This document shows, one piece after another, positions 3,711 to 57,304 of a DNA stretch of 64,000 nucleotides; the stretch's first letter is position 1, and each line of letters opens with the position of its first letter. The stretch lies in IMG/VR virus record IMGVR_UViG_3300045988_116799, positions 13,506-77,505 of that record; one strand, 5' to 3'. Under the pieces are notes generated by a model, which was not told where the DNA came from, ran no database searches, and saw only the letters and a program-made list of their open reading frames with translations. The translations under genes and the position numbers were made by a program. The stretch comes from a virus.

Positions 3711-4304
3711 TTAAACACTCATTTCCAGCATCTTTGGATAGCCTGCGGTATAATCATACCCAAGTACCTCCTCAACCGTGCTCATTTCCGCTACCGCCTT
3801 CTTGTGCGCAGCCGTAACGTTGAAGCACTCAAGGGCATACATCTCCAGTGCCGAGAGCAGCTGTATCGCCTTGTCGCACTCCACCACCAGCTTCACATCG
3901 CCCAGCCACAGCGTCGTTGTAGCCTGTCCCATGGCCTTCGCAATGGTCGTCGAGTTCATCAGTCCTACACGCGTAGCCTTGTCGAGCCACACACGCTGTC
4001 CGTTGAGGATAAAGCCGTTGACGGCAGAAGACGTGTCATGCTTCTCAATCTCCGCAAGCACCATCTTCTGTGCGGCAGCAGTAAGAGCTGCCTCCGAAGT
4101 CATGCCGCCAGTCTCCAGGCGCACACCGTCATACACCCACACCTTGCGTTCCACCACAGCCCACATGTCTTTCAAGTCAGAACTAAAAGTTTCCGGACGT
4201 TCTATTTGCGTCTTCTCCTGACCGTTGATAAGCAGCAACACAACACCATCGCCAACAGTCAATCGTGGCTGTGCCTCGCTAAAATAATATTTCTCCATAA
4301 TCAA
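3711..4304 (-). CDS. Tail-fibre-associated protein (DUF4376-like C-terminus)
   Basis: 197-aa ORF; LSALEMYALECFNVTAAHK..YDYTAGYP resembles the DUF4376-type domain seen next to phage fibre genes; recalled similarity, not searched. Confidence 0.4.
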   Translation of the reverse strand: MIMEKYYFSEAQPRLTVGDGVVLLLINGQEKTQIERPETFSSDLKDMWAVVERKVWVYDGVRLETGGMTSEAALTAAAQKMVLAEIEKHDTSSAVNGFILNGQRVWLDKATRVGLMNSTTIAKAMGQATTTLWLGDVKLVVECDKAIQLLSALEMYALECFNVTAAHKKAVAEMSTVEEVLGYDYTAGYPKMLEMSV

Positions 4305-4331
4305 AATAATTTAACATTTAACACTTAAAAT

Positions 4332-5717
4332 TCAGCATTCGATATACTCCATCTGATTAGTCGAGCCTTCAAAGATATATCCGCACTCGTCCACAATCCT
4401 CACGTCCTCCAACGGCAGCAAGGTCTTCTTGCCATATTCCTTCTCTGCTTCCACCATCCACGCCACGATACCCATCATGCCACCATGCACCTCTCTGGCT
4501 ATTGTCTTGCCCGTCAGCTCACCATCAGCAGTCACCTCCGGCATACCGATAAGCATCTTTATCCAATTAGGTTCGCCCGTTTTCTCGCTCTTGCGTATCT
4601 CGTAGTCGAAGACAGTGAACGCCTGTCCGCTACGTGCCAACTCCAGTGGCTTTATATTCGGAGCGTCCATCTTGCGGTCTATGCGTATCTTCTTTGTCAG
4701 TTCTCGTAGCTTCATATCTTTCTCAATTTTCACCATCTCTCCGAATCCGTCAGTATGACGCATCAGTCCGAAGTAGCTGCCCCACGAATTATCGTTATTG
4801 CACATTCTCGCTCTCAATAGCGTGTCTTTGCGTATAAGGCAATAGCCCTTGTTCGAGTCCGTCACGCTCTTGTCGTTGTTGCGTATCACCCTATAACCGC
4901 AGAAGTCAATCCCTCGCTTGTCGTTGATGTCGGTAATCCTTGTATCGCCACGCTTCGCCCTCATCTTCAGCTCATACCACCAGTACTGCCTTATCCTCCA
5001 CTTCATCCGTTGCGCTTCCTCCCTTGTTCGGCAAGCCACCATGCAATTATCTGCATAGCACAATCGCCATTCAGTGTTTCGGCACAGCCACTCATGGAAT
5101 CTCAGCATCAGTATATGGTGAGCAAGCGGACTCGTCGGTGTGCCTACAGGCAGTTGCCCGTCAACAAAGCACAACTCCACGGCAAAGTCTATCAGCCACT
5201 TGTCACCAATAAGGTATTTCAGCTCCTTGCGCAGCACGCTCGGCTTCACGTGCATATAGCATTTTCGTTGATCGGCAGTCACTACCCAGTCCATTTCGCG
5301 CAGATCGTAAAACAGGTGCTTCACTCTTGGAAGAACATAGTTGCTTTTCAGCTCCTTGTGCTTTGCCGACGGAGTAATACCGCACCCTTCCTTGCAGTTA
5401 AGCGACACCAACGGGTCGCGTCTGCGGTATATCGGCTCCAACTTGTTCTTCAGCAGATGTTCATACACTAAAGTTCTGAACGTAGGCGCGTCGATATGCC
5501 TCACCTTCTTGTTGTTGTTCACCTTGGTCAGCTTCCAGTACTTGATGTCCTCATGCCAGCTTCCATCTTTGAGATGTTGTTCAATACTTGCGCATAGCCC
5601 TTTTACATCCTTCAATGCCTCCGCCACCTCTGGGCGTTTCTTTCTGCCCTTAGCGGCACTCTCCACTGCTCTGAGGTAGTCGTCAGCAACGAAGGGTATG
5701 TAGTTGGGTCTATGCAC
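4332..5717 (-). CDS. DGR reverse transcriptase
   Basis: 461-aa ORF with a GTG start. RT motifs: TADQRKCYMHV (A), GQLPVGTPTSPLAHHILM (B), RLCYADNCMVA (C), DFCGYRV (E). Lies 226 nt downstream of the TR on the same strand. Confidence 0.9.
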   Translation of the reverse strand: MHRPNYIPFVADDYLRAVESAAKGRKKRPEVAEALKDVKGLCASIEQHLKDGSWHEDIKYWKLTKVNNNKKVRHIDAPTFRTLVYEHLLKNKLEPIYRRRDPLVSLNCKEGCGITPSAKHKELKSNYVLPRVKHLFYDLREMDWVVTADQRKCYMHVKPSVLRKELKYLIGDKWLIDFAVELCFVDGQLPVGTPTSPLAHHILMLRFHEWLCRNTEWRLCYADNCMVACRTREEAQRMKWRIRQYWWYELKMRAKRGDTRITDINDKRGIDFCGYRVIRNNDKSVTDSNKGYCLIRKDTLLRARMCNNDNSWGSYFGLMRHTDGFGEMVKIEKDMKLRELTKKIRIDRKMDAPNIKPLELARSGQAFTVFDYEIRKSEKTGEPNWIKMLIGMPEVTADGELTGKTIAREVHGGMMGIVAWMVEAEKEYGKKTLLPLEDVRIVDECGYIFEGSTNQMEYIEC

Positions 5718-5943
5718 GTTAATAATATGTTTTGTGCGGATTGCTCCGTTGTTAATAATCAGTGTCGGGCTAAAAAGTTGACGGAACTGTCTGCCCGTCA
5801 GAATGTCTCTCGGTCACGTTCGCCGCATCACGTACAGCCATCGTGCTACGCTCACATCCCTTGTCTTTGATATTTTCTGCTTCTCCTGAGCGAGAGTGGT
5901 GTTCCCGTGTTATTGGTTCTGCATCATTTATGATGCCCGACGT

Positions 5944-6051
5944 TGGGCAGAACCGCCATTATTCACGTTCGTATTAGCAGCCGAGTTGTTCGCATTCAGA
6001 TACCGAGGCGAACAATTCGCATTATTCGCATTGCCACGAAAGCGCACGGCT
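5944..6051 (-). repeat. DGR template repeat (TR)
   Basis: 108-nt gap-free alignment to 6310-6417; all 12 mismatches are plus-strand T in the TR (A on the transcribed minus strand). Confidence 0.9.
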
Positions 6052-6238
6052 CGGAGACACCAACCTCTTTAGCCATCATCTATATGGATAGCGTCACCTC
6101 TCATGCAGGCTTCAGAGGCTTCGGCCCTCATGCCGAGCTTGTTCTGGTTTTGAGGAAATATTTTGTCTTGATTCATTTTATTCTATCTTTTAAACCACTA
6201 TAAAGTTACTAATTTTGTTTCTGATTGCCAAAGACATG

Positions 6239-6255
6239 GCGCGGTTGCACCGCGC
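6239..6255 (-). promoter_or_regulatory. GC-rich hairpin downstream of the VR (candidate DGR target-recognition structure)
   Basis: GCGCGGT tgc ACCGCGC: 7-bp stem, 3-nt loop, ~36 nt past the target-gene stop; no U-tract follows on the minus strand. Confidence 0.5.
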
Positions 6256-6290
6256 TGCACAACGTTGCACTAAGTTGCACCCGGCTGCGC

Positions 6291-9167
6291 CTATTGCACG
6301 ATGCGACACTGGGCAGAACCGCCATAAAACACGTGCGGAATAGCAGCCGAGTGGTTCGCATTCAGAAACCGAGGCGAACAATACGCATGACTCGCATCGC
6401 CACGAAAGCGCACGGCTATGCGCACGCGCTGGTTGAGAGTAGAACTCCAGTACGGAAATGCCCACGAGTAGAAGCATTGCCAACTGCTAAGATTTCCTCC
6501 ATCGGCAATCTTGTATGGGATATACCCAAGTCTATTCTTACAGTAACCGTCCGACAAGATAGGAGAACCGAAAGTACCAATCTTACCATACGTAGACTCG
6601 AAGCCGAATGTGCCAAGATTGTTCTTGCTGACACCAGACTCATTCACCCACTTTGACTGGTTGGGTTCAAGATAGAAATCTATGTAGTTCTTTAACAGCT
6701 GCTCGGCATTGTAGCTGCCGTTGGTCTGCACCTTGTTAGTGCCCACCATCTCACAGCCGCCTCCCCAATAAGCAAAGACATCACCACTGACGTTCATGCC
6801 GTGCATGAGACTCATTCTAAGACTTAGCTCAAGGTCGTATGTAGCAAGCGTGTTAGCGTCTTTGTAGCCCTTACAAGTGCCAATCTTCTTGCGATACACC
6901 TTACAGTTCATCACTCCGTCAGCCAAGCCCTTTACGCCCGTTATGTTCTTATAGCGGTACGTTACGCCATACGCCTCATACTCGGTGTTCTCAGCAATTC
7001 CGAACTCTGCTGCCCACGATGCTGCCATCTGGCTCTCCATGCACTGCTCCTTTGAACGATATAAATTCACGAACCACGAAAAGTTATTCTTTTCCAACTT
7101 TTCGTTATGTCCAAATGGTGTGCTATCGCCAAATCCGCGATATGTCCATTCTTCCGTACCCTGTTCCTTGCATCGCACACCGCCATTGTCGAGCCATGTA
7201 TTCTCCGAGTTGCAAGCGTCATTGCTTGATATGCCCGAACCAAACAAATTATTGTCGTGCAAGTACTTTGTTCCATACAGCAGCTCCATACACAGTATAA
7301 AGGTGTTGACACCATGAAAACCTCCTTCGGCAAAGGGCAGTGGCGCATTGGTGTCAGCATTGTTGGCACGAGCCTTTTGCATGTTGCTCACCTGAGTCAT
7401 ATCCGATATACGAGGATATGTTCTACCATCGTTTACGTACATCGAACACATATTCTCGCCTGCTCCGCTCGGTCCGTTGGTGGTGTTTGTGTCACCCACG
7501 GCATAGACGTAGAAGAAGTTGCGTGTCTTGTTGCCTACCGTAGTAACAGGACAAGGAGACAGAGCCGTTCCAAGCAGAGGGTATCTGCCAGTATCAATGC
7601 CATCATAGCGCACCTGACGCTTGAAGATGCCCGTCAACACCTTACCGCTATCGCCAGTCTGACGGTCTACTGGATATAGGGTGTCGTAGCGACCGATCAT
7701 CACCGAATACTTTGTCTCTGTGGTCTCCCAAGGCAACAGCTGACGCACCTTGTTACCCTCTCCGTCGTACAAGTCTACCAAACCAAGCGAGTTGTACACC
7801 TCTGTTGCATCGTAAGGATGTGCGCCAGCCTTATCTGTCACAACAACACCATTTTTCAGCGTCAATGGAGTTGTGTGCTCGGCATCGGTATAGAGTTGTA
7901 CATCACACGCAGCACGCATCGCCTCCGTAATACCCACGGTAGGCGCAAACGCACCCGACACAAAGCGGAAGTGATTATTGTCCATCAACTGACCTACAGG
8001 GTGTGTAGCCTCGCCAGTGTTGTCGGTTTGGTCGATAAGGTACGGATGCCAATCGCCCAAGAACTCCTTGTTTCCCTTGCAGTTCTTGAAGTGAGGGTCG
8101 CCCGTCACCTCGTCGTTCTCGCCTACATAGTAATCCTTAACGTTCTCCTTCAGTTCGGCAATGTCAGCAGCGTTCTGTGCCACAGCCTCCTTAGTCTCCT
8201 TCATGTCCACTACAAGCTGATTCACCTTCTCGCCCTCACCGACTTTCACACTCTTGCTTTCACCCTCGCGATTGGTAACAGTCAGCAATCCGTCGTCGGC
8301 AAGAGTGGCATTGACGTTCTCGGCTGCTCTCACCGCATCCACTGTCGAGGCCGCACCCTTGTTGGCAGCATCAGCAGCAGCGTTGGCAGTGTCAGCAGCC
8401 GACTGTGCAGACATCACAGCCTGCTGGCTGGCATCAGCACGCTCCTGCTCAGCCGATACTCGCAGCTTCTCGTTAGCCATACGTCGCGCCTCCGCTTCCG
8501 CTCTCAGCTTCTCGTCGTTGCCTCGTGTGTTCTCAGCCTCCGTGCGGTTCGTCTCGTTGCTCGCACGCTGCGTCTCAGCCTCCGTGCGCTGAGTTTCAGC
8601 CTCTGCACGCTCATGCTCAGCCTTCACGCGCTCCTGCTCATTAGCTGTTGCCGTATTGTTAATAGCCACAGCCTTATCCACCTCCGCCTTAGCCTTACGC
8701 AGCGTGTCGGTAAGCTGTAGGTTGAGAGCTTCGCCCTGCTCAGCAGCCTCCTGCGCACGACTCGCCTGAGCCTGTGCCGATGCCGATGCCGAAGTCGCAG
8801 CCGTAGCCGCTGCATCCACCTTGTCCAAAGCAGCCTGTAGCCCAGCCGTAGCTGTAGTCACGCTCTCCGCAGCCTTAGCCGCTTCCGCTGCCTTGTCGTT
8901 AGCAGTTTTAGCAGCAGCGTTGGCAGCCGTAGCAGCCTCCTGCGCACTCTGAGCACCGTCGTGAGCGCTCTTAGCGTCCACGAGCAGGCTCCACCACTCG
9001 TCCTCACCCACAGGCTCGTGCCCGATGTTGCCGTCCGCCTTGCTCAGATAGGTGTTGCCGCCGTGCGTCACAAGCTGTAGCTTACAGTAAGTCACACTCG
9101 CGTCGTATGCCCCTTTAGGGTGCATGCCGACACTACCCATGTCAATGTACTTCTTTTCCATATTCAC
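6291..9167 (-). CDS. DGR target protein: receptor-binding tail fibre
   Basis: 958-aa ORF (GTG at 9167; the ATG at 9161 is a more likely start). Long Ala/Glu-rich coiled-coil N-terminal part, globular C-terminal part ending in the VR. Confidence 0.85.
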   Translation of the reverse strand: MNMEKKYIDMGSVGMHPKGAYDASVTYCKLQLVTHGGNTYLSKADGNIGHEPVGEDEWWSLLVDAKSAHDGAQSAQEAATAANAAAKTANDKAAEAAKAAESVTTATAGLQAALDKVDAAATAATSASASAQAQASRAQEAAEQGEALNLQLTDTLRKAKAEVDKAVAINNTATANEQERVKAEHERAEAETQRTEAETQRASNETNRTEAENTRGNDEKLRAEAEARRMANEKLRVSAEQERADASQQAVMSAQSAADTANAAADAANKGAASTVDAVRAAENVNATLADDGLLTVTNREGESKSVKVGEGEKVNQLVVDMKETKEAVAQNAADIAELKENVKDYYVGENDEVTGDPHFKNCKGNKEFLGDWHPYLIDQTDNTGEATHPVGQLMDNNHFRFVSGAFAPTVGITEAMRAACDVQLYTDAEHTTPLTLKNGVVVTDKAGAHPYDATEVYNSLGLVDLYDGEGNKVRQLLPWETTETKYSVMIGRYDTLYPVDRQTGDSGKVLTGIFKRQVRYDGIDTGRYPLLGTALSPCPVTTVGNKTRNFFYVYAVGDTNTTNGPSGAGENMCSMYVNDGRTYPRISDMTQVSNMQKARANNADTNAPLPFAEGGFHGVNTFILCMELLYGTKYLHDNNLFGSGISSNDACNSENTWLDNGGVRCKEQGTEEWTYRGFGDSTPFGHNEKLEKNNFSWFVNLYRSKEQCMESQMAASWAAEFGIAENTEYEAYGVTYRYKNITGVKGLADGVMNCKVYRKKIGTCKGYKDANTLATYDLELSLRMSLMHGMNVSGDVFAYWGGGCEMVGTNKVQTNGSYNAEQLLKNYIDFYLEPNQSKWVNESGVSKNNLGTFGFESTYGKIGTFGSPILSDGYCKNRLGYIPYKIADGGNLSSWQCFYSWAFPYWSSTLNQRVRIAVRFRGDASHAYCSPRFLNANHSAAIPHVFYGGSAQCRIVQ
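6310..6417 (-). repeat. DGR variable repeat (VR) in the C-terminus of the tail-fibre gene
   Basis: Matches the TR except at TR adenines; encodes ...RFRGDASHAYCSPRFLNANHSAAIPHVFYGGSAQ, ending about five codons before the stop. Confidence 0.9.
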
Positions 9168-27144: not shown

Positions 27145-27996
27145 TTACTTGTTTTTGTTTTCTCCGTTAATTTCGGCAATGGCTTGCTTTACATTAAAAT
27201 CGTTGCCGTAAAGCGCAATAATAAAGCGTTTGCCACGCTGATTCCATACAAGGGTTGTACTGGTTGATATTTCACCATTGCTTGACTGATAGTTGTAGGT
27301 GCGTGTACCTGCCAAGTTCCAACCTTTATAAGGCATCTTTAAGTGCCATTGTCCCGATTGCGAGTAAATTATACCTAATTCTTTTAGCTTGGCGTTGAGC
27401 GAGCGTGCCGTAATGTGCAAGTCGTCGGCAACTTGCGTTGTTGTAATGCAAGTTGTTGAAGCAAGTGTGTTGTCGTAGTATTCTGCTTTAGGTGCTGCGA
27501 TTTTGATTTGCTTGTCTTGCGCATCTATCTGTGCGTCTTTTTGTTCGATAACTATTTCTTGATAACGACCTTGTTCTTCAAGCTCTTTAATGCGCTTTTC
27601 GTGCTCGGCAATAACCTTGTCAGCAACTTTCATTGCACGTGCTAAAATTGTTGCAGGAGTGTCATTCTGTGTTGTTGCAATATAGCCACCTTTGGTGCGA
27701 ATTTCGTGAAGGATTTTCTTTACACCTTTCTTGAACTGCTTAGCAATTGGTTTGCGTGATTGCATAAGCAATTCATAAACACCTTCCTCTGTTAAGAACC
27801 ACATACTGCCACCACGACTTAACTTTAAATTAAGTCGTTCGTCCTCGTCAACATTGGCAACAGCACGTGACACATTCTTTAAACCAAGCCAATTCTGTAC
27901 ATCATTAGCCCGAAATAACGGGTTTTCAACAGACCCCCATACATCAATTTCCTTATCAAGGAAGGTTGATTTACTAATAATTCTGATTTCTTCCAT
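27145..27996 (-). CDS. Bro-N / KilAC-type phage antirepressor-like protein
   Basis: 283 aa. N-terminus has a Bro-N-like NPLFRANDVQNWLG...WFLTEEGVYELLMQSRKPIAKQF. C-terminus is KilAC-like: APKAEYYDNTLAS...TTTQVADDLHITARSLNAKLKELGII. Confidence 0.7.
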   Translation of the reverse strand: MEEIRIISKSTFLDKEIDVWGSVENPLFRANDVQNWLGLKNVSRAVANVDEDERLNLKLSRGGSMWFLTEEGVYELLMQSRKPIAKQFKKGVKKILHEIRTKGGYIATTQNDTPATILARAMKVADKVIAEHEKRIKELEEQGRYQEIVIEQKDAQIDAQDKQIKIAAPKAEYYDNTLASTTCITTTQVADDLHITARSLNAKLKELGIIYSQSGQWHLKMPYKGWNLAGTRTYNYQSSNGEISTSTTLVWNQRGKRFIIALYGNDFNVKQAIAEINGENKNK

Positions 27997-30531: not shown

Positions 30532-31317
30532 CTATTTTACGGCAGAGGTGTTTTTGAATTTGTTGATAAAATAGCACTGTCCCTTGCCAGTCACCTTTGT
30601 TGTGATTGTTGTATGCATAACGCCATCATTTCCGCTACGCACACCCTTCTTTATCTCGAAAAGTCCTTGCTCGACATATTGTTGGTTGGGGATATTGTAC
30701 CGTTCGCCTTTCTTGCCAAGATAGCCATTGTTCCGCAACCATTCAAACAACTTGTTCTGACCTATTGTAATGCCATTCTGTGTAAGAACTTTTGCAAGTT
30801 CCCCAACAAGACAGCTTGCCTTGCTTCCAACAATAGCATCGGCAAATGTGACCTTAGGCTGCATTTGCATGACCACGCCATTTAAAACAACGATTTCATG
30901 CGCTGATTCTTGCAACGCCTTTTGCTGTCGCTCGATTTTTTCTTGTTGTTCAGCCGCGAGGCGCAGAGCTTCGGCAAATGTCTGTGGCAGTCCATACTTT
31001 CCTGTTTTGCGGATTGAGGGTAATACATCGCCACACACCCAATCTTGGAAAGGCTCTGCGATAGGCTTGTCGGAGCGCATAATTAAACGATAGAGGTTCT
31101 GCTCGTTGATAAAGTGTGCTCTTTGTGTGCGCCCCATAGAATCTATGACCTCGATTGAATCTACCCCATCTTCTTTTAGGCGTTTCTTAGCGTCTGTGGC
31201 GTTGTTTATTCCTAATACTCGACAAATGTCTGCCAAGCAAAACAATGGCTCTTCACTCGTCCCTGCTGTTCTAATCTTTCCGAACGCAGGATTTTCAAAT
31301 ATTTTTATCTCGTTCAT
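30532..31317 (-). CDS. Bro-N / KilAC phage antirepressor (Ant-like)
   Basis: 261 aa. N-terminus FENPAFGKIRTAG..EPLFCLADICRVLG...QNLYRLIMRSDKPIAEPFQDWV. C-terminus PQTFAEALRLAAEQ...KVTGKGQCYFINKF. Confidence 0.8.
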   Translation of the reverse strand: MNEIKIFENPAFGKIRTAGTSEEPLFCLADICRVLGINNATDAKKRLKEDGVDSIEVIDSMGRTQRAHFINEQNLYRLIMRSDKPIAEPFQDWVCGDVLPSIRKTGKYGLPQTFAEALRLAAEQQEKIERQQKALQESAHEIVVLNGVVMQMQPKVTFADAIVGSKASCLVGELAKVLTQNGITIGQNKLFEWLRNNGYLGKKGERYNIPNQQYVEQGLFEIKKGVRSGNDGVMHTTITTKVTGKGQCYFINKFKNTSAVK

Positions 31318-39628: not shown

Positions 39629-40477
39629 ATGGCAAATTTGAAATTAACAAAAGAGAGTACGAATAGTGAAATCAAGGAGTATTTTACCGCAGTGTTAAAC
39701 CTTTCACAGTCCAACAGGGAATTTCCTGTAAGTATTGATGATGTATGGCCGCTTGTATATGGCAAGAAATCGGATGCTGTAGAAGCACTCATTAATAATG
39801 AGCAGTTCATAAAAGATGTTGACTATCAAGTTTTGCGGAAAAATCCGCAAAACCCCAAAGGGGGTAGACCTACAATAGAATACTACCTTACGACTTCTTG
39901 TCTTGAATATTTTATTGCCCGGAAAATCCGTAGTGTATTCGAGGTCTACCGGCAAGTCTTTCATAAAGCGGTACAAGCTATTGCTGTTCCTCAGACTTTT
40001 GCCGAAGCGTTGATGCTCGCCGCTAAACAACAGCAGGCTATTGAGGAAAAACAACGGCTAATAGAGCAAAAGAATACAGAGATAGAACAAAAGAACACAG
40101 AAATAGTTGAACTTTCAACCGCTATCACAGAAATGCAGCCTAAAGTCAGCTATGTAGACACTATTCTCCAGTGTAAAGATACTGTACAGGTGACACTTAT
40201 TGCACAAGATTATGGGAAATCAGCAAAAGCGTTCAATGTACTTCTTCGCAATATGCAAATACAGCGCAAGGTTGGCACAACATGGGTTGTACGTGCTAAA
40301 TATCTACAATGTGGTTATGTTCAGTCGGAAACATTTGAATATCCGCATAGTGACGGTACAAAAGGCGCGCGTGTCTATACGAAATGGACACAAAAGGGTC
40401 GATTGTTCTTATACGAAACATTAAAAAAGCATGGTATTCTACCACTTGTCGAACAAACAGAGCAAGCAAAGAAATAA
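39629..40477 (+). CDS. KilAC-domain antirepressor-like protein with a distinct N-terminal domain
   Basis: 282 aa; PQTFAEALMLAAKQQ...MQPKVSYVDTIL...TKWTQKGRLFLYETLKK parallels the C-terminus of 30532..31317. Confidence 0.65.
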   Translation: MANLKLTKESTNSEIKEYFTAVLNLSQSNREFPVSIDDVWPLVYGKKSDAVEALINNEQFIKDVDYQVLRKNPQNPKGGRPTIEYYLTTSCLEYFIARKIRSVFEVYRQVFHKAVQAIAVPQTFAEALMLAAKQQQAIEEKQRLIEQKNTEIEQKNTEIVELSTAITEMQPKVSYVDTILQCKDTVQVTLIAQDYGKSAKAFNVLLRNMQIQRKVGTTWVVRAKYLQCGYVQSETFEYPHSDGTKGARVYTKWTQKGRLFLYETLKKHGILPLVEQTEQAKK

Positions 40478-45512: not shown

Positions 45513-45797
45513 ATGACAGCGGAAGACATCTTGAAATATTGTCATTTCTATAAAGGTGAGGTGCTAATGCCTGATTCTTTAGAAGAAACAAATGAAGGTC
45601 AGCTATGGCTGGCTGAAAAAACAGTATGCGAGGAATTCGTAAATGACATTCATGTTGACACAGCACAAAAAGACGTTGCTTCTATTGTTGCTGCCTATGT
45701 TGGGAAATGGAATCCTTATGAATTGTCGGATGTTATGAACACGTACCTTACAAAGGTTCCAGAGGTTGAAACCTTCATAAGGCAAGTGTATTTATAG
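45513..45797 (+). CDS. Hypothetical protein
   Basis: 94-aa ORF; a TAAATTTG -7 box lies at 45479-45486; converges on the MuF-like gene with a 6-nt overlap. Confidence 0.45.
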   Translation: MTAEDILKYCHFYKGEVLMPDSLEETNEGQLWLAEKTVCEEFVNDIHVDTAQKDVASIVAAYVGKWNPYELSDVMNTYLTKVPEVETFIRQVYL

Positions 45798-48700
45798 TTC
45801 AAATAAGGCGTTTCCTTTGATATAATAAATGGATGCGCCTTTCTTTTTAAATTCCTTGGCAATCTTTAAAATTTTATCGTGAGAACCATCTAAAATATCG
45901 TATGGATAAGTTATGGATTCAATACAATCAATTGTAAGCTGCCCGTGGTATTGTAGTTCTAGATACGAAGATATATGTTCTTTTTTAAATTCTACGAGGT
46001 TTGTTGTTTGTATGTCTATTGATGTTGGTGTATTATAAAAATCATCAAACGAGCACGCTTTGGGGTCGCTAACGAGAGACGGCTGATATCTAACCCCTAA
46101 AGAATCTCCTGCCGTCCACGTTGCGACAACTTTGTCTTTCTTAAAACGGACTTCCACGTTACCATAACTTCTTGCTGTGTTGTTTTGCATTGAGCGCAGT
46201 ATATTGTGGTCAAGAAGGTTTCCGTATTTCTCATATTCTTTTCTGTCTAATTGCTGAACTGCAAGGTCTTTTCGCGGAAGGCCAAACATCTTATGGGCGG
46301 CACTTAAACGTGAATGTGTAGGACTAATTTTTCCTGTTGTGGACGTAGAACCTAAATAACCTCCGGATGAGCCAGTCTCGAAAGTGTTCATAAATTTTGA
46401 ATTTAAGACCTTTTCGAGTATGGAATCTTTTATATTCATTCCTAAATCATGCTCACTGAACACTTTTTGCATCAGTAATTCTATCTCATTCTTATGCGTT
46501 TTTGCTGTGACACCATAATAACGGCTGTTCTTCTCGTATTCGCTTATTGCATCTTCAAGATATTCAAGAGTCTTTGGAAATTTCGTACCAAGGCGTTTTT
46601 TCAAGTCTTCTATTGTTTCGTGATTAACTGCTGTTTCTTTTAATAGCTTTGGCGATTTCAATTTGTTTTTTAATAGTTGCTGATATTTTCTATTAATCTC
46701 CTGCGCTTTGCTTTTTGCCAAATCCAAGTCAACATTTCTCCGTGTCAGTATATGATTTATCTCTGATGCCAGTTCTTTGATTTTTCTACTTTTTGATAGA
46801 GTAGCATATGCGAGTGCATCGCTGACACTGTCGGCAACGGCTTTAATGTCAATCTTTCTCTCTACTATACGTAATTCTTTCTTATACGCATCTTGAGCAA
46901 CTTTCCATGTATCGTATTTTTTATGTTCTTCAACCCATTTAATCTCAGATTCCAGAAAGCGTTTCCTTGGAAGTAATTCAACGCTTTCTCTTGCCAGTCT
47001 TGCTTCAATAGCTTTGTTAATTGCAATAGCTTCTGACATTGAGTAATTGCGAGCGACAAGGATAGGATTTTCAAGGCGTGACAGAGATAAAATCTTTTTC
47101 CCTTGTTCTTTCAATGCTTTGGCTTCTTCATAAATATTTACATAATCTCTTGCTTCAAGAGCTGTCTTTAATGCCGATGTGTCCACATCTTTAATGCCAT
47201 TCATATAGCGTAAGACGCTTTCGCCATAATGAACGTAAGCTCTTTCTGTTGCAAGTCGTCTTTGTCGTTGTTCGGCTCTTCTTTTGATTGATTCTGCGTC
47301 TCGCTTTGCGTGTCGTGCCTTAGCAATCTCTTGTATGGCATCACGGCGTGACATTGCGTCAGCACCCATTTGTTTGCGCTGTGTTGCATCCAAAAACTTC
47401 ACCCAATAACTTTTATTGTTTGCCAAGTGCCACGCCAACTTGTCCCGTTTATAAGCGTCCACGATTTTGTTTGCATTATCCTCAATGTACCGTTTATATT
47501 GGTCGGGCATATCTTTAATACGGTTAGGAGATACGTAATTGGACATATCTTCTCCGTTGAACAGCCGTTTGTAGAATTGCTTGCGTTCTTCGCCACTTAT
47601 CATTATAGGGTCACTGGTACACATGCAGTTTGAGCCCCAAAAGCATTTGCCGTCTTTCTGTATATACATGATGTGATTGTTCTCAAGTGTAACGTCGTAC
47701 ACAAAGCCGATGTATTCAACTTTCTCCTTGTTAAATACAGTGGCGGTTGCTGAATCGCATTCACTTATTCTGTAACAGTCATATCGCTGCTTTATAACTG
47801 TACCATCTTTTTTGACAGTATTTTTAGGTGACATTATTCTATATGACGGTCGATGTCCTACTTTTAACAATAGCAAACCTATTTCAGCTGCCATTTGAGG
47901 AGAAGATGTAAAATACATTCTTTCTCCATGATTTGGAGTACATACATGACCTCTGTTGCCCATAAAAGGACGTGGCTTCTTGATATGTCCGTCGCACACA
48001 ATAAAAGCATCAAGAAATATTTGGATTTGTCTCTTTGATGCATTTAAAATTTCTTGTGGTATATATTTATAATGTGCAGTTCCGTATTTTAAAAGCTCTT
48101 GACCAAAAGCACGGTGATATAAAACAATGGTGCTTTTATAAACGTGTGGCGTAAAACCCATCTTCTTGATACAAGTTTGCATACGTTTCCAAGCAGGCTG
48201 TCCTTTTTCTTGCGACAAAACAATACCGTAGTCATGTTGCATACTACCGTCTGCAAGGTAATACCCCATAAATTCACAATACACATCAAAAGGTATATTT
48301 TTGTCGCCAAACATAATGTTCGTGCGGTCTTTGGCGGTATTGACAGCGGAACGATAGAAAGCCCCCATACTTGGCTTGTATTCCGTAGCGTTGCATTTTT
48401 TTATTTCGTGAGCACCGCTTTTGCTGATATACACCATTTGATGTTCTGGAGTAACAAGACATTCCAATGAACGGTTAAAAAAGTGTATAAGTTCTCCATT
48501 GTAAGGGTATTTTTGTACTCCTACAATATTTGTTTCTTCTATTTCACGTGTCTGTGGATTTAAAGAATATACAACATCCTGAGTCGTAACATCTTTAAAT
48601 TCTTTCCATCCTTTTGTAGTCAGAACCTGAGTACCTTCGGCATAACATTGAGGGTGCCAGCCATTCCACACAAAGCCTTTAGGATAGTACCCTTCAAGCT

Positions 48701-49550
48701 CGTCGCAAATGTCAGCATCTTCGTCTGGGTCGTGCTGTGGAGATACGTGTATATGCTGCCCTATGACGAAAGGCTCGTTTGCCCAACGCTCGTTCCTTGC
48801 TGTGTGGTATGCTGCATTGATTTCGGTACGAGCCACACGTAAAGCATTCTTTCTTGCGGAGCGATATACGCCCAGCCCTACATGTTCGAGCGGTTCTTCT
48901 ACAAAGCGTACACGTCCGTCAATAATGCGCTTCCTGCGCCAAGTGACAATATCTTTCTTCTGTCCGTTCTTTAACACTTTTACTGTGTGGTAACGACGAT
49001 ACATCATATCCGGGTTATTCAAATATTGTCGTATTCTTCTACCCACTTCCTCTGCGGATTCACCCTTTCCCAGTCCGTCGGCTATCACGTTAGACATCGC
49101 CATCTCGAACTCTGCTTTTGTTTGCTGACAGTAGTTCCATACGGACCGCGCGAGGTTCAAGCCTATCTTAGAATTGAGTCTATTGGCTATGAACGTCGCA
49201 GCAGCCGTTTTTCTTGCGGTTTCTAATGCTTTGTCTGTTAGCACAGAGAATTGCCCTATTGTATCATTGTCGTGCGCATACGCAAGAGAAACGCCGCTTG
49301 TTATGCCGCTTTTGTAGCATAACATGCTATTTTGGAAATAGTCGTTAAATATGTCTTCAAGTCGAGCTTTAAGCAAAGGAAAATTGTCAAAATTGAAAAG
49401 AGCGTCATTTTCGAGCACGTCTTCGCTATAGCCAAGAGCGAGCAGCTTCCTGACATAACTTCCGTACAACATGCCAAGTCGGCGGTTGTATTCGGCGAAT
49501 AGCCTGTTTAAATCTTCCTTTCGCTTTTTAGCTGTAAGTTTTTCTGCCAT
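45792..49550 (-). CDS. Head morphogenesis protein (MuF/SPP1 gp7-like) with an intein and a ~600-aa C-terminal extension
   Basis: 1252 aa, directly downstream of the portal gene. The N-terminal ~300 aa are gp7/MuF-like. The WHPQ|C...N|CMC junction restores an HPxCxC-type motif once residues 302-641 are removed. Confidence 0.75.
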   Translation of the reverse strand: MAEKLTAKKRKEDLNRLFAEYNRRLGMLYGSYVRKLLALGYSEDVLENDALFNFDNFPLLKARLEDIFNDYFQNSMLCYKSGITSGVSLAYAHDNDTIGQFSVLTDKALETARKTAAATFIANRLNSKIGLNLARSVWNYCQQTKAEFEMAMSNVIADGLGKGESAEEVGRRIRQYLNNPDMMYRRYHTVKVLKNGQKKDIVTWRRKRIIDGRVRFVEEPLEHVGLGVYRSARKNALRVARTEINAAYHTARNERWANEPFVIGQHIHVSPQHDPDEDADICDELEGYYPKGFVWNGWHPQCYAEGTQVLTTKGWKEFKDVTTQDVVYSLNPQTREIEETNIVGVQKYPYNGELIHFFNRSLECLVTPEHQMVYISKSGAHEIKKCNATEYKPSMGAFYRSAVNTAKDRTNIMFGDKNIPFDVYCEFMGYYLADGSMQHDYGIVLSQEKGQPAWKRMQTCIKKMGFTPHVYKSTIVLYHRAFGQELLKYGTAHYKYIPQEILNASKRQIQIFLDAFIVCDGHIKKPRPFMGNRGHVCTPNHGERMYFTSSPQMAAEIGLLLLKVGHRPSYRIMSPKNTVKKDGTVIKQRYDCYRISECDSATATVFNKEKVEYIGFVYDVTLENNHIMYIQKDGKCFWGSNCMCTSDPIMISGEERKQFYKRLFNGEDMSNYVSPNRIKDMPDQYKRYIEDNANKIVDAYKRDKLAWHLANNKSYWVKFLDATQRKQMGADAMSRRDAIQEIAKARHAKRDAESIKRRAEQRQRRLATERAYVHYGESVLRYMNGIKDVDTSALKTALEARDYVNIYEEAKALKEQGKKILSLSRLENPILVARNYSMSEAIAINKAIEARLARESVELLPRKRFLESEIKWVEEHKKYDTWKVAQDAYKKELRIVERKIDIKAVADSVSDALAYATLSKSRKIKELASEINHILTRRNVDLDLAKSKAQEINRKYQQLLKNKLKSPKLLKETAVNHETIEDLKKRLGTKFPKTLEYLEDAISEYEKNSRYYGVTAKTHKNEIELLMQKVFSEHDLGMNIKDSILEKVLNSKFMNTFETGSSGGYLGSTSTTGKISPTHSRLSAAHKMFGLPRKDLAVQQLDRKEYEKYGNLLDHNILRSMQNNTARSYGNVEVRFKKDKVVATWTAGDSLGVRYQPSLVSDPKACSFDDFYNTPTSIDIQTTNLVEFKKEHISSYLELQYHGQLTIDCIESITYPYDILDGSHDKILKIAKEFKKKGASIYYIKGNALFEL
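47628..48647 (-). mobile_element. Intein with LAGLIDADG homing endonuclease (340 aa, residues 302-641)
   Basis: Starts CYAEGTQVLTTKGW (block A). LAGLIDADG-like FMGYYLADGS and FLDAFIVCDGH. Block F/G FVYDVTLENNHIMYI...CFWGSN followed by +1 Cys. Confidence 0.8.
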
Positions 49551-53907: not shown

Positions 53908-54696
53908 TTAGAATAGCCCCCACTCGGCAAACTTCTCGAATCCGCCTACCTTGTTGATGTAGTCTTTTGCTATCTTAACAATCTCGGAGTACGGCTTGCC
54001 GTCAACAGTTTCGTCACCGATAGCGCAGAACAGTTCTACAGGCTTATGCTCTTTTTGTGCCTTCAGGAAAGCGTAGATATTAACCGAGACATCGGCTTTA
54101 GAAAGGTCTTTCCCGTGCAGTCCACCGCCTGTCACCGACTGAGCCATATCAGAGCCGAGTTTGCGGTTCGTTGCTCCGCTATCTACATCAGTGCCTCCAG
54201 TCCAGTCGCCCAGTGGGTTGATAGTGGCAGTAGGGTAGAGCTTTTTCAGTCCTGATGTCTTTGCGTTACTCTGACATATAACCAACTTTTCTCCGGCAAG
54301 GATGTATTTACCGTCTGTTGGAAAATTTGCGTATATATCGTGGGCTAACTTAGAAAGAGACTTCTCTTCGACCGAGAGGGGCATACCCTTGAAGATTCCG
54401 TTGTCACCGCAACGGATAAAGCCCTCTTGGTTCTTTGCAAGGTGCGCGTCCTGTGGCTTGACTACAAGGTTCAGTCGCAAATTGTCACAATTGGTGATGC
54501 GCTCCACGATTGTATATACTTCTTCTTTAGAGAAAGCTACGCTACTTTCAATAATAACGTTAGCTACGCCATGTCCGATAAGGACTTCAACGGCTATTTT
54601 CGGACTGTCCTGCTTGGTGTAAGCAAGGTCAACGATAGCACCTGCAATGCGGTCTGCTACCTTGTCGGGGTGTTGTGGGTTTACTTTTTCTATCAT
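53908..54696 (-). CDS. Short S-adenosylmethionine synthetase (MetK)-like protein
   Basis: 262 aa. QHPDKVADRIAGAIVD (cf. GHPDKIADQISDAVLD), CGDNGIFKG (cf. GAGDQGLMFG), NPLGDWTGGTDVDSGATNRKLGSD...GGGLHGKDLSKADVS (cf. NPTGRF..GGP.GD.GLTGRKIIVD..GGGAFSGKDPSKVDRS). Confidence 0.7.
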   Translation of the reverse strand: MIEKVNPQHPDKVADRIAGAIVDLAYTKQDSPKIAVEVLIGHGVANVIIESSVAFSKEEVYTIVERITNCDNLRLNLVVKPQDAHLAKNQEGFIRCGDNGIFKGMPLSVEEKSLSKLAHDIYANFPTDGKYILAGEKLVICQSNAKTSGLKKLYPTATINPLGDWTGGTDVDSGATNRKLGSDMAQSVTGGGLHGKDLSKADVSVNIYAFLKAQKEHKPVELFCAIGDETVDGKPYSEIVKIAKDYINKVGGFEKFAEWGLF

Positions 54697-54716: not shown

Positions 54717-56021
54717 TTAAACTTTGATTTTTTCAGCCTTTTTGCCTGTGTAGGTTTCCCAACGGTTGATTATCACATCACAATAATGAGGGTCAAGCTC
54801 CATTGAAAAACCGTTTCTGTTGAGTTGTTCGCACGCCATTATAGTCGTGCCGCTACCACCGAAGCTGTCGTAGACATTCCAGCCTTCCTGCGATGAGTTT
54901 TGAATAAGATATGCGAAAAGTGGAATAGGCTTCATGGTCGGATGTTCGACACTCTTTGTCGGTCGGTCAAACTCCATAACGGTCGTTTGTTTTCTATCAC
55001 TGAACCAATTATGGCTCGCCCCCTTTTTCCAACCATACAGACAAGGTTCATGTCGCCATTGATAGTCTTGTCTTCCGAGCGTCATGGAGTTCTTTACCCA
55101 TATCAAATTCTCTCGCATCTCCAGGTCTACCGTGTTGATAAGGGCTTTTCTAAACCAATAGGAGTAGCCGTCGCTGTGGAATAGATAGAACGAAGCGCCT
55201 TTCTCCATATTAGCATTGGCAGCGTTGAATGCGTTTGTCAAGAACTCCTCGAATTTATCGTTGTCCATTTTGTCATTTAAGACGACCAGTCCATCCTTGC
55301 GATGTTTTTCTGTTACTGCGCCTTCATAACCGTAAGCCACATTATACGGTGGGTCTGTCAAATAGAGTTGGATGTTTGTTCCCCCGAGTAGTTTAGCAAC
55401 TTGCGATGCGTCAGTAGAGTCACCACACATTAGTCTATGTCTGCCGAGCTGCCAAATATCCCCGAGCTTACATTTCGCTTCAATCTCATGCTCGCCCTCA
55501 TCGTATGCGTCGTCTTCCGTTTCTTTTCGCTCTGGCATTTCTTCGACTGGCTCCGTGTCGGTCAAGAACGAGCAATCGACTCCCCATTCCTGCAAATCCT
55601 CTACTTCCCAATCTCCGTTGGCAAGCTCGTCCCAGTCCCAGTTACCAGCCTGTACGTTGTCCTTGATGGCATACTCTTTTATTTTGGCAATGGGCACGTC
55701 CTTGTTGAGTACGAAACAAGGCAGCGCGTCAAAACTTTTTACGCCTTCGTTGTGCAGTTCCTGACAAATACGCAAGCGCATGTTGCCACAGATAACGACA
55801 AACTTGCCACCCTCGGCAGCGTATACCATAAGCGGCTTGTATTGCAGCAGCTCCGGCGAGTCCTTGAGTGACTTTTTTAGCTTGTCATGTTCCTCTCCTT
55901 TGAGATAACGAGGATTCTTTGGGATGCCCACAATCTGCCCTTCATTAAGCTCCAGACAGCTTAGGCTTATTCGTTCTTTAACGCCCAATTCGCTGAGCGT
56001 GTTATTCTGCTTTTTTGCCAT
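54717..56021 (-). CDS. ParB-like nuclease domain fused to an N6/N4 DNA methyltransferase
   Basis: 434 aa; ParB-N-like KPLMVYAAEGGKFVVICGNMRL, then LTDPPYNV (motif IV) and VYDSFGGSGTT (motif I). Confidence 0.8.
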   Translation of the reverse strand: MAKKQNNTLSELGVKERISLSCLELNEGQIVGIPKNPRYLKGEEHDKLKKSLKDSPELLQYKPLMVYAAEGGKFVVICGNMRLRICQELHNEGVKSFDALPCFVLNKDVPIAKIKEYAIKDNVQAGNWDWDELANGDWEVEDLQEWGVDCSFLTDTEPVEEMPERKETEDDAYDEGEHEIEAKCKLGDIWQLGRHRLMCGDSTDASQVAKLLGGTNIQLYLTDPPYNVAYGYEGAVTEKHRKDGLVVLNDKMDNDKFEEFLTNAFNAANANMEKGASFYLFHSDGYSYWFRKALINTVDLEMRENLIWVKNSMTLGRQDYQWRHEPCLYGWKKGASHNWFSDRKQTTVMEFDRPTKSVEHPTMKPIPLFAYLIQNSSQEGWNVYDSFGGSGTTIMACEQLNRNGFSMELDPHYCDVIINRWETYTGKKAEKIKV

Positions 56022-56438: not shown

Positions 56439-57304
56439 TTATTTAACGGTTTTACCGTTGATGTTAGAAATAGCGAGCTTTACATTAAAATTGTTTTTGT
56501 AAAGTGCGAGAATAAAACGTCTGCCTCGTTGACTCCAAACCAGATATGGCTTGGCATAAGTTACGTCTTTGTGTCTGTCGTAATAGGTGTAGGTTCGTGT
56601 GCCGTGCAAATTCCATGTGCTGTAAGGCTTGTTCATCAGCCATTGGTTGGATTGACGGAAAATGATTTTGAGTTGCTGCAATTTGTTGTGTAACTCATTA
56701 GGTGTTATGCCAAGCTCGTTTGCGATTTGCCGTGTGGTGAGCATGTTCTCGGCAGCAAGCGTCTGCTCGTAGTATTCTACCTTTGGTGCATCCTTGGCGA
56801 TACGCTCGCTTTGTACTTCGATAACTTGTTTGCTTTGGCTGTTTTCGCATTCAAGTTCTTTGATACGCTGCTCACGTCGTGCGAGTGCTGTCTTGGCTGC
56901 TATCAAGCCACGGGCAATTATGTCTTCCTCGCTGTCTTCTTCTTTAGTCACAACGTATGCGCCTGTTGTGCGAAGCGAGGGCAGAACTTCGTTGAATACC
57001 CAATCTTGAAAAGCAATAGCATTCTTTTTGTTAGAGCGAAAAATACAACGATAGAAGCCAGGTTCTGAAATAAAATACATTTCTTCATCTTTAAAGATGC
57101 CTGTTTTTTGCCGTGTGCAACAACCTCTTTTGAGACCTTAATAATACTTAGGTCTCTAATTAAGCGTTCTTTCGTTATACTTGGGTTGGATAATCCTAAA
57201 GCCTTGCATACATCAGAAAGGCAAAATAAAGGTTCTCCGTTTTTGCTTAACGCTGTACGGAGTTCTCCAAACATTGGAGAATTGAAAATTTTTACATCGT
57301 TCAT
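56439..57304 (-). pseudogene. Bro-N / KilAC antirepressor-like gene split by a frameshift in an A6 run
   Basis: ORFs 56948..57304 (Bro-N N-terminal half) and 56439..57080 (rest of Bro-N plus KilAC) overlap. One extra A in the run at 57104-57109 would fuse them into ...VAHGKKTGIFKDEEMYFISEPGFY... Confidence 0.6.

Follow-up and report, generated by a model that had tools for sequence, protein, structure and literature searches.

Organization of the cassette

The stretch analyzed here, called the window throughout, comprises 64,000 nucleotides (nt; 64 kb) of a phage genome of ~100 kb (IMG/VR record IMGVR_UViG_3300045988_116799). Its minus strand carries a diversity-generating retroelement (DGR), whose reverse transcriptase (RT) gene occupies positions 4332-5717 and encodes 461 amino acids (aa) from a GTG start. 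The locus is a DGR by the defining behavior of its two repeats, the template repeat (TR) and the variable repeat (VR). The cassette is ordered as target gene with the VR at its 3' end, then TR, then RT, all on the minus strand. The target gene (6291-9167) lies in the tail-fibre region, codes for a protein of 958 aa and holds the VR (6304-6417) in its last ~40 codons; a Pfam search with the protein gave no match. The TR (5938-6051) was located by repeat comparison and is followed, up to the start of the RT gene, by a structured spacer RNA (5718-5937). An open reading frame (ORF) of 35 codons lies between VR and TR (6069-6176), as had been noted in a first-pass annotation of the sequence.

TR and VR are 114 nt long each and share 88% identity. 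Thirteen of the 14 differences between them fall on TR adenines, which bears out the earlier statement that the VR has been mutagenised. The fourteenth is located in the terminal stretch where the initiation of mutagenic homing element (IMH) and its TR counterpart IMH* diverge. The TR contains 27 adenines, and 25 of these occupy codon positions 1-2 of the target frame. Both repeats end in the GC-rich element GGCGGTTCTGCCCA, identical on the IMH* side (TR 3' end, 5944-5957, minus strand) and on the IMH side (VR 3' end, 6310-6323, minus strand), and divergence starts after it. By analogy with known DGRs, GGCGGTTCTGCCCA would have the IMH/IMH* role. The adenine-specific pattern was also found in relatives with enough upstream sequence, except for two loci with a degenerate TR (L011 and L037). 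Just 3' of the target stop (6239-6280, minus strand) four repeats of ~10 nt are present that start with GTGCA(A/G)C, the last of which leads into a perfect hairpin, GCGCGG-TGCAA-CCGCGC (6239-6255). Homing-enhancing hairpins are frequent at this position in DGRs, just past the target stop.

The reverse transcriptase and its motifs

A DNA-level search with positions 4200-6500 against deposited phages returned zero matches, and relatives were therefore sought through the RT protein. In total, 381 RT homologues were found, and 120 among the matches listed were aligned. Thirteen IMG/VR phage genomes with RTs 83-94% identical to that of the window served as the set of close relatives. The GTG follows an in-frame stop with no other start codon in between and is conserved in all 13 close relatives, one of which (L011) has an in-frame stop only five codons upstream of it. 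It aligns with the ATG-encoded Met of more distant homologues, e.g. P0006-P0009 ("MHRPSYLP"); start codons in the more distant homologues are ATG and, in one case, TTG. The GTG is thus the real start of the RT gene.

Pfam recognizes only RVT_1 in the RT (2.6e-9). In a profile search the best solved relative was the Bordetella RT, bRT (8ub7_A, E 6.4e-11). An AlphaFold model of the window RT reached a predicted local distance difference test score (pLDDT) of 88.7, and its core resembles bRT (template modelling score, TM, 0.78 on target) as well as group II intron RTs. The catalytic Asp149 of motif A (GAT, 5271-5273, minus strand) stands in an invariant column. Motif B (RT motif 4; residues 191-197, 5127-5147, minus strand) reads VGTPTSP and departs from the usual [LIV]GxxxSQ. 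Motif C reads LCYADNCMV (residues 219-227, minus strand), as is evident from the sequence and from the homologue alignment, and its core YADN (Y221 A222 D223 N224; TAT GCA GAT AAT, 5046-5057, minus strand) departs from the YxDD of RT motif 5. Length, start codon and both motifs are as the first-pass annotation had given them. Both aspartates of YxDD were 100% conserved in 155 DGR RTs surveyed before (PMC3521204).

Motif B had been called an intermediate between the DGR and the group II intron type. This is fair as a description, but the motif is a trait of the whole family, with [IV]GTP[TSA]SP in nearly all of the 120 homologues among the matches listed, and it is already published: a GxxxSP motif B has been described for the DGR RT of crAssE-Sib (PMC11054128), and SP variants were on record in 2012 (PMC3521204). 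In both sources the DGRs with SP look functional. Identity as a group II intron RT or maturase was considered and rejected, as Val or Ile replaces the Gln of QGxxxSP and the RT adjoins a TR/VR pair. An Rfam search, group II introns included, gave no match within 5600-6500, the region of TR, spacer and VR.

The YADN box in related reverse transcriptases

All 13 close relatives read YADN. In the alignment, the closest clade (P0001-P0014, 58-93% identity) is YADN throughout, and most other homologues listed are YADD. The first-pass annotation had allowed for a recent inactivation or a sequencing error, in which case the window would be a lone variant among YADD relatives; the opposite was found, YADN being clade-wide. 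At the codon in question, where related genomes might have carried GAT, the close relatives have AAT in three cases (L004, L006, L007; AAT also in the window) and AAC in the other ten. The Asn has therefore been kept through synonymous change. With dS values of 0.45-1.5, pairwise ratios of nonsynonymous to synonymous substitutions (dN/dS) between the 13 relatives and the window RT lay at 0.05-0.11 in the polymerase core; the C-terminal domain gave 0.03-0.08. By these ratios the RT is under strong purifying selection. The motif A aspartate D149 and the first aspartate of motif C, D223, are invariant in 68 family members.

To place the substitution in the family, 120 clusters were analyzed by neighbor joining (NJ) and parsimony. 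Asn was found in 21 clusters, distributed over five separate clades, with Asp at the root, which suggests that the D-to-N change arose at least five times in this RT family. Among representatives at 50% identity, YADN occurs in 8 of 43 from the family of the window RT, and YxDN in 7 of 57 more distant RTs, most of these with a canonical SQ motif B. One such distant DGR RT (L023, 4000-6467) combines the canonical motif PLGSYLSQL with YMDN in motif C; all 24 mismatches between its TR and VR lie at TR adenines (24/24), and an ORF of 109 aa without Pfam match occupies the usual avd position between VR and TR. The family is large: a single cluster at 90% identity has 1353 member sequences.

Copying of the TR into the VR in YADN lineages

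The window and two close relatives (L002, L003) have an identical TR, and their VRs differ at TR-adenine positions. Genomes in which the TR has drifted at positions other than adenines show the same non-adenine changes in their own VR. Differing VRs on identical TRs, together with these mirrored changes, mean that the TR has been copied into the VR since the genomes diverged, and all phages in this comparison were already YADN. Likewise, two loci from two samples (L016, L017) share an identical RT protein (P0006) and an identical TR, and have different VRs. Adenine-specific TR/VR differences were also present in other YADN lineages (P0008, P0009, P0112, P0068, P0120; loci L018, L019, L021, L022, L024).

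The density of mutagenesis was compared in 74 further IMG/VR loci of the RT family. Of the TR adenines, a fraction of 0.50 was changed in the VR at the 13 YADN loci and of 0.48 at the 61 YADD loci, a difference without significance (Mann-Whitney p = 0.70). This is close to the adenine density of ~50% reported for active DGRs (bioRxiv 10.1101/2024.11.15.621889). The TR/VR comparison points, indirectly, to ongoing mutagenic retrohoming. A Pfam scan of the window's larger ORFs found no second RT. Taken together, these data suggest that YADN is very probably a catalytically competent natural variant, and we infer that the YADN enzyme itself is the polymerase.

Spacer RNA and search for Avd

The spacer between TR and RT start is 220 nt long and has a mean column identity of 80% in an alignment of 11 loci, which exceeds the conservation of synonymous sites in the RT gene. 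RNAalifold predicted six helices with 38 pairs, 18 of which have compensatory changes. In controls the number of compensatory pairs was 6.0+-1.9 for shuffled and 1-7 for slid alignments. The spacer had no match in Rfam. By analogy with the spacer (Sp) of the Bordetella DGR RNA, it is likely a priming and recognition element.

The lack of an Avd ORF at the cassette, stated in the first-pass annotation, was borne out: PF05635 was matched neither by the 10 small ORFs flanking the cassette (E<=5) nor by the 20 larger ORFs and most other ORFs of 80-200 aa in the window (E<=0.01; a few spurious-looking small ORFs were left out of the Pfam scan). Precomputed Pfam matches of the genes flanking 10 related RTs did not contain Avd either. 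Such searches might overlook a strongly diverged Avd, given how little these proteins are conserved. In curated DGRs avd is absent from 26% and thus present in ~74% (PMC5758913).

The 35-codon ORF occupies the usual avd position. It is intact with its ATG in 14 of 14 close genomes, its core is near-invariant in nucleotides, and it has no Pfam match. Variable sites are spread evenly over the codon positions (13/15/15), and the ratio of nonsynonymous to synonymous polymorphism (pN/pS) is 0.53. On these grounds a miniature Avd was rejected, and the ORF looks more like a conserved DNA or RNA element than like a peptide. It has probably been conserved as a nucleotide-level element on the 5' side of the transcript that carries the TR.

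The C-terminal domain of the reverse transcriptase

The bRT protein (328 aa) aligns to profile positions 6-329, which leaves ~130 aa of extra sequence in the window RT past the thumb, or ~184 aa past motif E. The long extension noted before is therefore present, and the length given for it, ~150 aa beyond motif E, was only approximate. The extra domain covers residues 345-461 (4335-4685, minus strand). In the AlphaFold model, residues ~348-455 form a separate domain, joined to the core by a linker of low confidence. Modelled alone, this domain reached a pLDDT of 89 and consists of three long beta strands, one long helix and a small beta unit. It is acidic, with an isoelectric point (pI) of 4.86 compared to 9.47 for the RT core. 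Searches of the PDB gave no significant match (best E 0.08), with weak, non-significant matches to single-stranded DNA-binding proteins and the oligonucleotide-binding fold (SSB/OB-fold); in BFVD, the significant matches were other phage RTs only. Among the 120 homologues listed, every full-length one also covers the C-terminal ~150 residues in the alignment. In ~20% of DGR RTs up to ~150 aa without a recognized motif follow the thumb (PMC5758913).

The idea that the extension mimics Avd as a basic helical bundle did not hold once the structure was modelled: the domain is beta-rich with one long helix, it is acidic, and the PDB has no significant match to it. A free-standing accessory protein was rejected as well. 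Short proteins that match the C-terminal domain alone start at an internal Met or derive from internal deletions, and all of them are products of decayed RT genes. Among the decayed relatives (P0181, P0182, P0184, P0199, P0212, P0186), an internal deletion joins ~40 N-terminal residues to the C-terminal domain, and one product of 549 aa has target-protein-like sequence fused to RT remnants. These agree with the fragmented RTs reported in epsilon crAss-like phages (PMC11054128).

Phage context

In the phage of the window the portal is of the SPP1 type, and the large terminase subunit belongs to Terminase_3. Neighbors of the target gene are ORFs of 1867 aa and 1841 aa and lysis genes. Directly downstream of the RT, at 3711-4304 (minus strand), lies a gene with a TTG start for a DUF4376 protein of 197 aa. 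In related phages the position 3' of the RT is taken by unrelated-looking ORFs of 126-148 aa, so that the DUF4376 gene is apparently not a conserved DGR accessory.

Four paralogues of KilAC (ANT) antirepressors are encoded at 27145-27996, 30532-31317, 39629-40477 and 56439-57080, three of them also with Bro-N, and a phage integrase is present on two related contigs (L016, L025). The antirepressor genes and the integrase on relatives hint at a temperate lifestyle. A 1252-aa ORF adjoins the portal gene (45792-49550, minus strand); its sole Pfam match is a weak one to LAGLIDADG_3 (residues 429-473, E 0.0076), and it could contain an inserted homing-endonuclease or intein-like segment. A 262-aa protein (53908-54696, minus strand) matches only the N-terminal domain of S-adenosylmethionine synthetase, and directly adjoining its gene is one for an N6/N4 DNA methylase (54717-56021, minus strand).

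Proposed mechanism and alternative explanations

In the mechanism that we propose, the adjacent RT would copy a transcript that contains the TR and, 3' of the TR, the structured spacer. Template adenines would be misread during copying, and the complementary DNA (cDNA) would replace the VR at the 3' end of the 958-aa tail-region gene. The second aspartate of YxDD would be dispensable in the family of the window RT. With Asn in its place, a state that would be stable and under selection, the RT would still carry out mutagenic cDNA synthesis. The role of Bordetella Avd may be filled by the spacer RNA, by the C-terminal domain or by both. On comparative grounds the locus is very probably a functional Avd-less DGR of a tailed gut phage with an active YADN RT. 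The possibility raised in the first-pass annotation that YADN supports catalysis is thus strongly favored, by fixation in the clade, synonymous codon variation, purifying selection, VR diversification and equal adenine density.

Several points weigh against this reading. The support for it consists wholly of comparative sequence evidence. Most of the close relatives come from one IMG/VR dataset (3300045988), so that the samples are not independent, and the number of D-to-N origins was counted on a quick NJ tree. The scan for a second RT covered 64 kb of the ~100-kb genome, with host-encoded RTs outside it. Biochemically, the D211N mutant of Ty1 RT, in which the second D of YXDD is replaced, keeps polymerase activity, but its kpol is 223-fold lower, Mn2+ is favored and transposition in vivo is abolished; changes to these aspartates abolish the activity of retroviral RTs (PMC2148107 and work cited therein). 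In view of the Ty1 and retroviral mutants, activity of a YADN enzyme is not a given.

One alternative is that the Asn goes back to a sequencing error or to a mutation that inactivated the RT recently, the mutagenised VR being a relic of earlier activity. The AAT codon is one transition away from GAT, both aspartates were without exception in the survey of 155 DGR RTs (PMC3521204), and decayed DGRs with deleted RTs exist in this family, both among the relatives found here and in published phages (PMC11054128). However, the Asn is fixed down to 58% identity with synonymous AAT/AAC variation, dN/dS of the RT is 0.05-0.11, and VRs differ among genomes with identical TRs and YADN RTs. These comparative data refute a recent inactivation or sequencing error; its probability is vanishingly small, and it can be taken as excluded for practical purposes. 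A dead YADN RT could instead be kept for RNA binding or cDNA targeting, while an RT of the host or of a co-resident phage acts in trans. The loss of activity in the retroviral mutants would fit this explanation, as would the reach of the scan, which was confined to phage DNA and there to two-thirds of the genome, and the presence of many DGRs in gut Bacteroides (bioRxiv 10.1101/2024.11.15.621889). On the other hand, no second RT was found in the window, and purifying selection has preserved D149, D223 and the palm as a whole. Adenine-specific change of the VR, at YADD-like density, is seen in each of at least five apparently independent YADN lineages from different phages, and each lineage's own co-evolving TR and spacer RNA would have to be recognized by a foreign RT. 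An RT acting in trans, which the first-pass annotation had also considered, is therefore unlikely, and we give it little credence.

A further alternative grants that the RT is active and holds that the Asn makes it slower or Mn2+-dependent, the DGRs being of low activity and the change selected to tune mutagenesis. The Ty1 D211N kinetics and metal preference are in favor of this, as is the strikingly low catalytic efficiency of bRT-Avd, a property linked to the low fidelity of that enzyme (PMC7826257). YADN and YADD relatives do not differ in the share of adenines changed per VR, but this hardly tests the idea because density reports the outcome per homing event and not the frequency of such events. 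An effect of the Asn on rate or metal use is plausible; the explanation as a whole is possible, although we would not favor it. Possible as well, but less likely than not, is that this RT family constitutes a self-sufficient DGR engine independent of Avd. Template selection and priming would then depend on the acidic C-terminal domain together with the six-helix RNA, two carboxylates would suffice in the active site, and the recurrent Asn could be an adaptation that adjusts the speed, metal use or fidelity of mutagenic cDNA synthesis.

Comparison with known systems

The locus departs from DGRs as usually described in three features: the SQ motif, YxDD and Avd. The departures in SQ and Avd are already documented, for the RT family or for DGRs generally. 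The third, an Asn in motif C that is conserved and recurs in DGR RTs which apparently work, seems to be new; a search of the accessible literature for YxDN in DGR RTs found no report and brought up only the YVDN of belpaoviruses. Among RNA polymerases, the L polymerases of mononegaviruses with GDN in motif C are an analogous case. A conserved YxDN contradicts the earlier statement that the aspartates are invariant in DGR RTs. An RT is judged active by its two YxDD aspartates, which count as invariant, and automated DGR finders as well as calls of dead RTs rely on them and on the SQ motif. Indeed, myDGR misses the GxxxSP family (PMC11054128), and with it the family of the window RT, because of this motif. 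If YxDN enzymes are selected and show the usual density of adenine mutagenesis, as they appear to do, the second carboxylate would be dispensable in this setting. Comparing the wild type with an N-to-D revertant could show how this residue affects rate, choice of metal and fidelity in an RT of low fidelity. The analysis also draws attention to a large, abundant family of gut-phage DGRs without detected Avd, with a structured spacer RNA and an uncharacterized RT-specific domain.

The best-studied counterpart is the DGR of BPP-1 (bRT, Avd and TR-Sp RNA; PDB 8ub7 series). Both elements share the order of target gene with VR, TR and RT, adenine-specific TR/VR differences, a GC-rich element at the repeat ends and a structured non-coding stretch between TR and RT. 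In contrast to BPP-1, no Avd was detected at the window locus, the spacer is 220 nt long, and the RT has an extra acidic C-terminal domain of ~115 aa. Motif B is VGTPTSP compared to IGSLTSQ in bRT, and motif C is YADN compared to YMDD.

A closer relative is the DGR of crAssE-Sib, an epsilon crAss-like phage (OR575929). Its RT is 46% identical to that of the window over 99% of the length and belongs to the same family, with GTPxSP and the order target, TR, RT, and the description of its cassette names no Avd (PMC11054128). The two differ in motif C, where a normal YxDD is given for crAssE-Sib (PMC11054128) and the clade of the window has YADN. The length, portal and terminase of the window phage, and its lack of DNA-level matches among deposited phages, set it apart as well. 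Among the DGRs classified by Wu et al. in 2018, avd is absent from the whole of Lineage 3, within which 3A occurs only in Bacteroides and relatives (PMC5758913). Absence of Avd and a C-terminal extension are both traits of DGRs in that study, and the window RT shows the two; the text makes no mention of YxDD, motif 4 or GxxxSQ.

Replacement of the second aspartate of motif C by Asn is shared with two RTs from outside the DGRs, that of nematode belpaoviruses, where YVDN is a natural lineage trait (bioRxiv 10.1101/2021.11.23.469668), and Ty1 D211N. These are RTs of eukaryotic long terminal repeat (LTR) retroelements with an unrelated biology, and in Ty1 the D211N change was introduced artificially and blocks transposition. 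Unlike that of Ty1, the Asn of the window RT is natural, recurrent and located in a domesticated mutagenic RT.

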